Part shown: piece after piece, positions 22,130 through 44,562 of the stretch
Layout of the letters: each line of letters opens with the position of its first letter
How positions within the stretch are numbered: the stretch's first letter is position 1
From: Desulfobacterales bacterium
GTDB lineage: Bacteria > Desulfobacterota > Desulfobacteria > Desulfobacterales > UBA11574
NCBI GenBank assembly: GCA_030145345.1
Contig: JAQYVT010000002.1
Coordinates: forward strand, 11,095-75,094
Direction of reading: 5' to 3'
DNA length: 64,000 bases
Program-made: the position numbers and the translations under genes
The notes under the pieces: generated by a model
Database searches by the model: none
The model's input: only the letters and a program-made list of their open reading frames with translations
What the model was told of the DNA's origin: nothing

Positions 22130-22780
22130 TTACAAAATAATCACTTTCTGTACAGCTTTGACAATTTCTTCAGGATCATCCATGATCTGTAGAATTTCAA
22201 GGTCTTCCGGAGATATCCGTTTTTCACCCAGCAACTTGTCTTTTATCCAGTCGATAAGCCCTGCCCAGTATTCCGAGCCCACCAGAATCAACGGAAACGG
22301 CTTTATGCGACGGGTCTGAACCAGCGTGACCGCTTCAAACAGTTCATCCAGGGTGCCGAAACCACCCGGAAGAATAATATAGGCACTGGCATATTTGATG
22401 AACATAACTTTGCGAATAAAAAAGTATTTAAAGTCGAGTTTAACATTTGAAAAGGAATTCGGTTCCTGCTCGAAGGGAAGAATAATATTCAGCCCAACCG
22501 ATGTGCCCCCTGCATCTGCGGCACCCCTGTTGGCGGCTTCCATAACACCTCCGCCCCCGCCGGTGATAACAGAAAAGCCGTTTTTTACAAAAAGTTCCGA
22601 TAGTTTTTCAGCTTTTTTATAAACCGCATCATTCGATTTAATTCTTGCCGAACCGAAGATGCTCACGGCAGGCCCTAAATCATGGAGGGTATCCACCCCT
22701 TCAACAAACTCTCCCATGATTTTAAAAAGTCGCCAGGGTTCCCCGAGCGTTAAATCGTCAACTACAAACTGTTTTTCCAT
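22130..22780 (-). CDS. LOG-family protein (TIGR00730 type; cytokinin-riboside-5'-monophosphate phosphoribohydrolase-like)
   Basis: GGGGGVMEAANRGA and PGGFGTLDELFE motifs are present. I prefer the ATG at 22780 (MEKQFVV) over the tracked GTG at 22837, which would overlap the upstream UGA-containing gene. Confidence 0.85.
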   Translation of the reverse strand: MEKQFVVDDLTLGEPWRLFKIMGEFVEGVDTLHDLGPAVSIFGSARIKSNDAVYKKAEKLSELFVKNGFSVITGGGGGVMEAANRGAADAGGTSVGLNIILPFEQEPNSFSNVKLDFKYFFIRKVMFIKYASAYIILPGGFGTLDELFEAVTLVQTRRIKPFPLILVGSEYWAGLIDWIKDKLLGEKRISPEDLEILQIMDDPEEIVKAVQKVIIL

Positions 22781-22833
22781 TTTTATCCGCGACTCACTTT
22801 GATATCGACATACAGCCGACATGCCTAAACGTT

Positions 22834-23052
22834 TCACGTCCCCCCGTTGAATCCGATGGTAACATCATCCTGATCCACAATGACCGGAACCTTGCGTATA
22901 CCGTCGGAATATTTCAGCATGGTCTTCATTTGACCGGGATCCGTCTTAACGCTAAAGTAGTCGACCGCCCGGCCCTGCTTGGCAAAAGCTTCACGAGCTT
23001 GATTGGTATAGGGTCAAGTGTCTTTGCCGAAAATCAATATTTTATCAGCCAT
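22834..23052 (-). CDS. Glutaredoxin-like (YruB-type) small redox protein with in-frame TGA at the active-site position; candidate selenoprotein
   Basis: Not in the ORF track. The ATG at 23052 is preceded by GGAGG 8 nt upstream. The translation is MADKILIFGKDT-U-PYTNQAREAFAKQGRAVDYFSVKTDPGQMKTMLKYSDGIRKVPVIVDQDDVTIGFNGGT. The TGA (23016-23014) sits where Grx proteins have the first Cys of CPYC. The frame then stays open for 59 more codons that keep the Grx fold signature (VPVIxxDD..IGF). Confidence 0.65.
22986..23000 (-). promoter_or_regulatory. Possible bacterial SECIS apical hairpin
   Basis: AAGCU-CGUGA-AGCUU begins 13 nt 3' of the UGA, and the loop contains GU. The stem is only 5 bp by eye, so it needs a proper fold. 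Confidence 0.3.
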
Positions 23053-23260
23053 GGGTCTTCCCTCCCTAAGCTATAACTCCAATTGATACCTGAGTACAAT
23101 AAAAAATGATTCCTTGCAATTTCAGACTTTTGCAATTAATAGTCAGAAAATCACTAACAGCTATTTAATCTTTTGTCAATGATTACAGATTGACAAATAC
23201 CATGGTGGTTGATAAAAATTTTTATGAATCTTAAAGGGGCGTTATTTTCTAATTTGTACG

Positions 23261-43284: not shown

Positions 43285-44562
43285 TTAAACATTCGGGTGT
43301 ATTGTCTTTAAAAATTCTCGAATCATCAACGCCGCACTTGCCCCCTCCCCTGCAGCACTTGCCACTTGTTTGGTGCTCTTGTCTCGCACGTCCCCTGCAG
43401 CAAAAATCCCGGGTATACTGGTCTCCAATATGTGAGGGTCTCGATCATCATAACCCTTTGGTCGCTGACCACCATGCAGCAGGTCGTGGCCGGTAACCAC
43501 AAAGCCCCATCGATCCAGCCGAACCCCGCTTCTTTTAAGAAATCCGGTATTTGGGGTCAACCCGATAAAGATAAAGGCACCGTTTACCGGCAATTCGTCT
43601 TCTGAGCCGGTCTGATTGTTTATCAGCCGAAGCTTTTTAAGTTTAGAATCCTCCCCCATGAATGCTTTGACTTCCGTATTCCATCGCACGTCAATTTTTG
43701 GGGTGCTGAAAACGCTGTCCTGGATGATCTTGGTGGCTTTGAATCGATCACTTCGCACCAGTATGGTCACATGTTCTGCAAACTTGGTTAACAGCAAACT
43801 CTCTTCGGCAGCACTGTTGCCGCCGCCGATGACCGCCACCCGTTCGCCGGTGTAAAAAGGGCCGTCACACGTGGCACAAAAATGCACCCCGGCGCCAAGA
43901 TATTCATTTTCGCCGGGCACGTTCAGGCGCATATAACGACTTCCTGTTGTAATCAACACCGCCCGGGCGCTATACGTTTGGCCGTCTCCGGTTTTTACAC
44001 AGTGATAATTGTGATGCTGGTAGAGTTCTACGACATCTTGGGCCTGCAACAACTCGACGCCGAATCGTTCGGCTTGCAGACGTAATCGTCGGGAGAATTC
44101 GATACCGGCCACGCCGTCCGGAAATCCGGGCATGTTATCCAGCTTTTCCGTGCCGGCAGCTTGTCCGCCAAAGGCTGCACGTTCAATAACCAGCGTCTCG
44201 ATGTATTCACGGCCCGTGTACAGCGCTGCGGTTAAACCCGCAGGTCCGCCTCCCAGAACGATCAAATCATAATGACTGCGGCTGGCGGTGGTCTTTAATC
44301 CCAGTTTGGCCGCAAGTTCCGCGTTGCTGGGTTCCACCAGAAAAGACCCGTCGGCAAAGACAATGGTGGGGATGATGCGCTTTCCCTTGTTGGTCTCTGT
44401 CACGAATTCTTCGGCGGCTTTGTCCGTTTCAATATCGATCCAGCTGTAGGGGATCTGGTGTTCGCCCAGAAACTGTTTGCTCTGCCGGCAATCCGGACAC
44501 CAGTGGGCGCCGTAAACCGTAATCTCGGATTTTGGCATGATAGACCTCTTTGATTTCTTCAC
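43285..44562 (-). CDS. Glutaredoxin-like domain fused to thioredoxin-disulfide reductase
   Basis: 425 aa. The N-terminal ~90 aa carries a Grx/NrdH-like WCPDC motif. The remainder has FAD site GGGPAGLTAALY, redox-active CATCDGPFY, NADPH site GGGNSAAEE and a C-terminal GIFAAGDV. Confidence 0.85.
   Translation of the reverse strand: MKKSKRSIMPKSEITVYGAHWCPDCRQSKQFLGEHQIPYSWIDIETDKAAEEFVTETNKGKRIIPTIVFADGSFLVEPSNAELAAKLGLKTTASRSHYDLIVLGGGPAGLTAALYTGREYIETLVIERAAFGGQAAGTEKLDNMPGFPDGVAGIEFSRRLRLQAERFGVELLQAQDVVELYQHHNYHCVKTGDGQTYSARAVLITTGSRYMRLNVPGENEYLGAGVHFCATCDGPFYTGERVAVIGGGNSAAEESLLLTKFAEHVTILVRSDRFKATKIIQDSVFSTPKIDVRWNTEVKAFMGEDSKLKKLRLINNQTGSEDELPVNGAFIFIGLTPNTGFLKRSGVRLDRWGFVVTGHDLLHGGQRPKGYDDRDPHILETSIPGIFAAGDVRDKSTKQVASAAGEGASAALMIREFLKTIHPNV

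Follow-up and report, generated by a model that had tools for sequence, protein, structure and literature searches.

The 64,000-nt stretch of DNA analysed here (Desulfobacterales bacterium, contig JAQYVT010000002.1; hereafter the window) holds a minus-strand frame that opens with a strong Shine-Dalgarno sequence and an ATG and meets TGA at codon 13, after which a glutaredoxin-like reading continues. The question that this locus raises is what the frame encodes and how its TGA codons are read. A preliminary description had proposed a new candidate selenoprotein with selenocysteine (Sec) in place of the nucleophilic Cys, and had let the gene end at a TGA at the 73rd codon. We propose that the gene encodes a 75-residue glutaredoxin-fold selenoprotein of the family NF041114 with two predicted Sec residues, at positions 13 and 73, and we consider this joint assignment of identity and two-Sec model very probable from the sequence.

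The start of the gene was read directly: GGAGG occupies 23065..23061 and the ATG 23052..23050, 8 nt further on, just as first described. Codon 13 lies in the context KILIFGKDT-U-PYT, and it is followed by 59 more sense codons (PYTNQAREAFAKQGRAVDYFSVKTDPGQMKTMLKYSDGIRKVPVIVDQDDVTIGFNGGT), ending KVPVIVDQDDVTIGFNGGT, up to the next TGA. Translation with TGA read as U carries the frame beyond this second TGA, where TGA-AAC-GTT-TAG (22836..22825) gives ...GGT-U-N-V-stop. Since the TGA that had been taken as the stop is the predicted second Sec codon, the gene would contain two Sec codons, end at the TAG and encode 75 aa instead of 72. The mechanical ORF listing gives at this locus a 31-aa fragment and, overlapping the 3′ end, a 235-aa ORF that belongs to the next gene and starts with GTG; it misses the selenoprotein gene, as had been noted.

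Table 1. Features of the predicted selenoprotein gene and its downstream neighbour (positions in the window).
Feature	Position	Strand	Remarks
Shine-Dalgarno GGAGG	23061..23065	-	8 nt 5′ of ATG; direct sequence reading
Full CDS, predicted UXX-star family 1 selenoprotein	22825..23052	-	75 residues + TAG: MADKILIFGKDT-U-PYTNQ...GFNGGT-U-NV*; translation with TGA=U and NF041114
First predicted Sec codon, UGA, codon 13	23014..23016	-	takes the place of the nucleophile in the Grx CxxC motif (U-P-Y-T in this gene)
Second predicted Sec codon, UGA, codon 73	22834..22836	-	third residue from the C-terminus, the "UXX-star" feature
Stop codon TAG (true stop in the two-Sec model)	22825..22827	-	sequence reading and translation with TGA=U
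SECIS-like hairpin 1, AAGCU-CGUGA-AGCUU	22986..23000	-	13 nt after UGA1, within the Q-A-R-E-A-F codons
Candidate SECIS hairpin 2, AUGUCGGC-UGUAU-GUCGAUAU	22802..22822	-	8 bp, 11 nt after UGA2, 3′ untranslated region
LOG / "possible lysine decarboxylase" family gene, downstream neighbour	22130..22780	-	Pfam PF03641, 116 bits

The 73-residue read-through product matched the NCBIfam family NF041114, "UXX-star selenoprotein family 1", with 105.5 bits (E 1.2e-30; curated cut-off 72 bits) over positions 1-68 of the 70 in the profile, and a six-frame search of the genome with the same profile recovered the locus at 94.6 bits over profile positions 1-70, with two TGA codons inside the match. Since the profile extends two positions beyond the second TGA, the gene would read on to U-N-V-TAG and comprise 75 residues. 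When U was read as C, the product also matched the Pfam Glutaredoxin domain (PF00462) with 41.3 bits (cut-off 22.9, E 1.8e-10). Because of these two E-values the frame is far beyond chance, which bears out the glutaredoxin-like reading that had been suggested for the 59 codons after the first TGA. The product scored far below the cut-offs of the models for GRX_bact (Grx3), YruB and NrdH. UXX-star families are reportedly discussed in a 2025 paper by Haft and Tolstoy.

The family is already known. A 2026 review (PMC13188914) describes NF041114 as "Distant Grx-like protein 1", with the motif UxxT and two Sec, and attributes it to Zhang and Gladyshev 2008, although the term "Distant Grx" is absent from the main text of that paper; the review also cites Haft and Tolstoy 2025 for sister families and Kim et al. 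2011 for a Sec-containing Grx. The locus is thus a correct catch and an annotation fix and not a discovery, and the claim of a new candidate selenoprotein does not hold. In the literature we found neither direct evidence of Sec insertion nor a biochemical characterisation for any member of the family, the present gene included. It resembles the other members in exceeding the cut-off across the full profile, in the N-terminal U-P-Y-T and C-terminal U-x-x-stop, in the length of about 75 residues and in the glutaredoxin-like fold. The differences are minor: an extra residue before the tail (GFNGGT vs GFGGT), which is common to the close relatives P0003-P0037, an Asn after Sec73 where most members have Gly, and the loop of the second hairpin, which is described below.

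The AF2 model obtained from the alignment of 31 sequences (mean pLDDT 89.9; about 89 in the tail) shows a minimal thioredoxin fold, beta-alpha-beta-alpha-beta-beta, with beta1 (residues 4-9), alpha1 (14-25), beta2 (29-34), alpha2 (39-48), beta3 (57-60) and beta4 (63-66), and it ends with beta4 and the tail, without a C-terminal helix. The best PDB matches found by Foldseek are glutaredoxins (3ic4 and 7c10/7c12), NrdH and BC3987, with a TM of about 0.75. The chains 7c12 and 7c10, named cGrx1 by their depositors, are the closest solved structures by sequence (E 4.5e-5) and stand among the top three by fold (TM about 0.76); we take cGrx1 to be from Clostridium (Alkaliphilus) oremlandii. However, cGrx1 is of the CxxC type (7c10 reads CPHC) and has both the resolving Cys and a helix at the C-terminus, whereas the gene studied here has Thr at the resolving position, lacks the C-terminal helix and would carry a second Sec in a short tail. 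Compared with the classical dithiol glutaredoxin (PF00462, CPYC type), the Glutaredoxin domain and the fold are the same, but the resolving position is an invariant Thr and there is no third (C-terminal) helix after the GG motif. The absence of the resolving Cys and of the third helix, together with the below-threshold scores for Grx3, YruB and NrdH, sets the gene apart from the classical dithiol glutaredoxins.

In the model, the predicted Sec13 is placed at the N-terminus of helix 1, which is the position of the glutaredoxin nucleophile, and the invariant Thr replaces the resolving Cys. Sec73 is carried on the Gly-rich tail GGT-U-N-V; the GG motif of glutaredoxins adjoins the active site. We infer that Sec73 would take over the role of the missing resolving residue, that Sec13 and Sec73 would form a reversible diselenide (in relatives with Cys13, a Cys13-Sec73 selenenylsulfide), and that the tail could then pass reducing equivalents to a partner, like the C-terminal Sec tail of mammalian thioredoxin reductase. 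The tail of that enzyme is Gly-Cys-Sec-Gly. The likeness is a functional analogy only: in both proteins a flexible tail rich in Gly holds Sec close to the very C-terminus, and therefore the SECIS lies outside the coding region. Mammalian thioredoxin reductase differs in its unrelated fold and its eukaryotic SECIS, and the redox partner of its Sec is the adjacent tail Cys and not the active-site Sec of a thioredoxin fold. The intramolecular Sec13-Sec73 diselenide, for which fold homology is the basis, is put forward tentatively, at somewhat less than an even chance.

The two selenols could instead be a ligand pair for a metal or metalloid (Hg, As, Cu or similar) in the same two-Sec protein and not a redox couple. 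Such a role was suggested as an alternative in PMC13188914, where several newly described bacterial selenoproteins are linked to metal handling. Against it, the 31 neighbourhoods have no conserved metal-resistance or transport gene, and the protein matches thiol-disulfide oxidoreductases in its fold, in where Sec13 is placed and in its invariant cis-Pro VP motif. We therefore regard metal binding as unlikely, while keeping it in view beside the diselenide couple.

How the two TGA codons are read was addressed by comparison with relatives. In 95 of 401 genomes of the same phylum a match exceeded the NF041114 cut-off, and most of these matches have two in-frame TGA codons. The comparative set consisted of 30 loci from this phylum, or 31 sequences with the window. 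At site 1, 25 of the 30 relatives have TGA and five have Cys (TGC or TGT), so that the column including the window reads TGA in 26 of 31, and the Pro at +1 and Thr at +3 of this site (Pro14 and Thr16) are invariant in the 31 sequences. This alternation is the classic pattern of Sec/Cys pairing, and with the NF041114 match it supports the original proposal of a glutaredoxin-like selenoprotein gene with a predicted Sec at the position of the nucleophilic Cys in a UxxT motif; both Cys- and UGA-containing homologues are thus found at codon 13. At site 2, all 31 sequences have TGA, and in each of them the stop (TGA in 15, TAA in 10 and TAG in 6) comes after exactly two more codons. The two codons encode G/A/R/N and then V/I, and all four Gly and all four Val codons are used, a synonymous spread that is the signature expected of translated sequence. 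The occurrence of TGA-x-(V/I)-stop in all sequences together with this synonymous variation would therefore rule out the second TGA as a stop.

A side observation concerns the 15 of 31 sequences in which the stop after U-x-x is itself UGA (L027, L030, L031, L033, L038, L040-L042, L044-L046 and L048-L051). Such members have, ahead of a single SECIS, a pair of UGAs separated by 6 nt that would be read in opposite ways, first as Sec and then as stop. The spacing to the hairpin is an obvious candidate for what tells the one from the other.

In Escherichia coli, the fdhF-type SECIS is a stem-loop whose apical loop contains G and U and which begins some 11 nt past the UGA. The hairpins found here share the spacing and the G/U apical loop, and the relatives L027 and L042 have GCAGGUCUGC-type loops. 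They differ from the fdhF type in that SECIS 1 of the window has only a 5-bp stem and in that SECIS 2, because it is placed after the stop codon, is untranslated. In the proposed course of translation, which would start at the ATG at 23052, SelB-Sec-tRNA(Sec) would read the UGA at codon 13 as Sec, guided by the in-frame hairpin 1, and the UGA at codon 73 would be read as Sec with the second, stronger hairpin 2, past the TAG that stands two codons after this UGA. A permissive scan of 22700-23150 with Rfam 15 gave no SECIS match; its one hit, to a lncRNA model on the opposite strand, is put down to chance.

Hairpin 2 has a folding energy of -8.8 kcal/mol in the window, which places it in the best 7.4% of segments of the surrounding 3.2 kb. 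It is weaker here than in most relatives, with two G-U pairs and the loop UGUAU in place of the GGU or GGUC of the family; the UGUAU loop is also present in L047, a relative from the same order. Apart from one or two exceptions (L043 and L049 are doubtful), the relatives have a stem-loop that begins 8-17 nt after UGA2, with spacers mostly of 10-13 nt, loops that are mostly GGU, GGUC or GUG, and stem sequences that differ widely. In an unadjusted MAFFT alignment, changes on both sides were seen in all seven pairs tested, and 74.5% of the cells were paired compared to 61.2% in shuffles. The covariation was 0.385 compared to 0.193, a value reached by none of the 500 shuffles, and slid controls were clearly lower. 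In addition, hairpin 2 is among the best 5% of folds of its own locus in 20 of the 31 sequences. The candidate SECIS after the second UGA is therefore better supported than hairpin 1, which had been presented as the SECIS element; the preliminary description missed the element past the stop codon.

These data also bear on a simpler model, with a single Sec at codon 13, a real stop at the TGA at 22836..22834, a product of 72 aa, and a downstream hairpin with some unrelated role, for instance as a terminator or as a 5′ element belonging to the gene that follows. In this genome TGA does serve as an ordinary stop, and the public calls of the Cys-form relatives end at ...GGT, both as this model would have it. 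However, it leaves unaccounted for the stop exactly two codons past the TGA in 31 of 31 sequences with synonymous codons at both positions, the post-TGA positions taken in by the NF041114 profile, and a hairpin at SECIS spacing with G/U-rich loops and covariation; for the terminator in particular, no U-run follows hairpin 2 in the window. We consider the single-Sec model very unlikely and retain the two-Sec model.

Hairpin 1 was evaluated in the same way. In the window it has 5 bp and -3.1 kcal/mol, and 28% of the other 24-mers in the 3.2 kb around the gene fold as well or better; a 61-nt fold of 22960-23020 gave z = 0.22. Since the energy of the single sequence does not support this hairpin, comparative tests were used. 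In the codon-aligned family, 72% of the cells were paired compared to 65.9% in shuffles, and the covariation was 0.283 compared to 0.147, with none of 500 shuffles reaching this value, and the covarying changes fall on synonymous positions of the codons. Columns 21-27, where two wobble positions pair, read CG in 17, UA in six, UG in four and GC in one; this pair is broken only in L024 and L034, both of them Cys forms, and is retained in all Sec forms. The broken pair in these two relatives would fit the loss of a SECIS once Sec has been replaced. The other Cys forms (L023, L027 and L035) retain the pair. Hairpin 1 is a likely candidate for the SECIS of UGA1: its position 13 nt after the UGA and its covariation in relatives speak for the earlier proposal, whereas its energy, including the fold that takes in the region suggested as a check, is no better than chance.

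The weak thermodynamics of hairpin 1 in the window would also suit a decaying gene, in which TGA arose by mutation from a Cys codon and the full-length protein is not produced. However, 25 of the 30 relatives, spread over many families within the phylum, have TGA at this codon, and both TGAs occur in the database proteins nearest to this one (up to 93% identity). The frame downstream of the first TGA is intact, with its 105 bits against NF041114, and is kept in relatives, so that the check on the conservation of these codons also favours the first proposal. Decay is extremely unlikely, and we retain the two-Sec gene model.

The machinery for such a gene is present. The genome has a tRNA-Sec (75.4 bits; called SeC with anticodon TCA by ARAGORN), selB (384 bits), selA (610.9 bits) and selD (371 bits), all above their family cut-offs, so that the check for Sec genes that had been recommended was positive. 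The selD gene itself (L021, G000:C53:13941-14861, minus strand) has an in-frame UGA (...SKTCG-U-AAKIDP...) followed 12 nt later by the hairpin GACCC-GGUC-GGGCUC with a GGUC loop, and this same-genome control agrees with the model. In the window, 11 of the 44 long ORFs end in TGA, and therefore TGA is not reassigned. Among the long TGA-ended ORFs of the window, a search for frames that stay open past the stop gave no second selenoprotein; the sole long extension (444 codons) proved to be the neighbouring gene, which shares the frame.

A genetic code (4 or 25) in which TGA would stand for Trp or Gly was accordingly rejected as virtually impossible: public entries do have W at both sites (all seven of the 75-aa entries examined and one 98-aa call), but these entries come mostly from very short contigs, the Sec system of the genome is complete, and the site-1 column alternates with Cys and not with Trp or Gly. 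The Sec forms in public collections (P0003-P0037 and P0066-P0101) are 75-aa proteins with Trp at both Sec positions, dozens of them among the matches listed, and are probably code-4 gene calls made by a metagenome gene caller on short contigs. The entries for Cys forms stop short at ...GGT under the name "glutaredoxin 3" or "glutaredoxin family protein"; the UXX-star name is borne by one NCBI entry.

The downstream neighbour of the selenoprotein gene is a LOG-family gene. Its mechanical ORF (22130-22837, minus strand) has a GTG start that overlaps the second Sec codon, and it spans the selenoprotein tail and SECIS 2. The alignment with the LOG homologue of L047 (74% identity) starts at residue 19 of this ORF, one before Met 20 (ATG 22780), and the true start is likely to be the ATG at 22780 and not the GTG at 22837. 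A LOG-family gene is found downstream only in the window and in one relative. When the ORFs nearest to the gene on either side were tallied in the 30 relatives, no conserved partner emerged: the nearest downstream ORF encodes nucleoside diphosphate kinase (NDK) in six of 30, the rest are scattered and varied housekeeping genes, and other neighbours recur at most two or three times.

Elsewhere in the window, a 425-aa ORF (43285-44562, minus strand) combines an N-terminal glutaredoxin domain (PF00462, 38.6 bits) with a pyridine nucleotide-disulfide oxidoreductase domain (PF07992, 159.9 bits), and its product could serve to reduce small Grx-like proteins. Among the structural matches of the selenoprotein, Foldseek also listed 7pwe, a glutaredoxin/ferredoxin disulfide reductase fusion protein.

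For annotation, the predicted two-Sec CDS (22825..23052) occupies what looked like a gap of 200 bp, and the start of the following gene should be moved from 22837 to 22780. Public collections handle the NF041114 family badly, with W at the Sec sites and with Cys forms that are shortened and renamed. The family would combine two Sec in 75 residues with one SECIS in frame and one past the stop, and in about half of its members a UGA stop stands only two codons beyond a UGA predicted to be read as Sec; on this biology the locus itself adds nothing new. If the proposed diselenide is true, the family would be a natural, very low-potential diselenide redox carrier with its C-terminal tail as a swinging arm, and this would hold for the family as a whole and not for this locus in particular.
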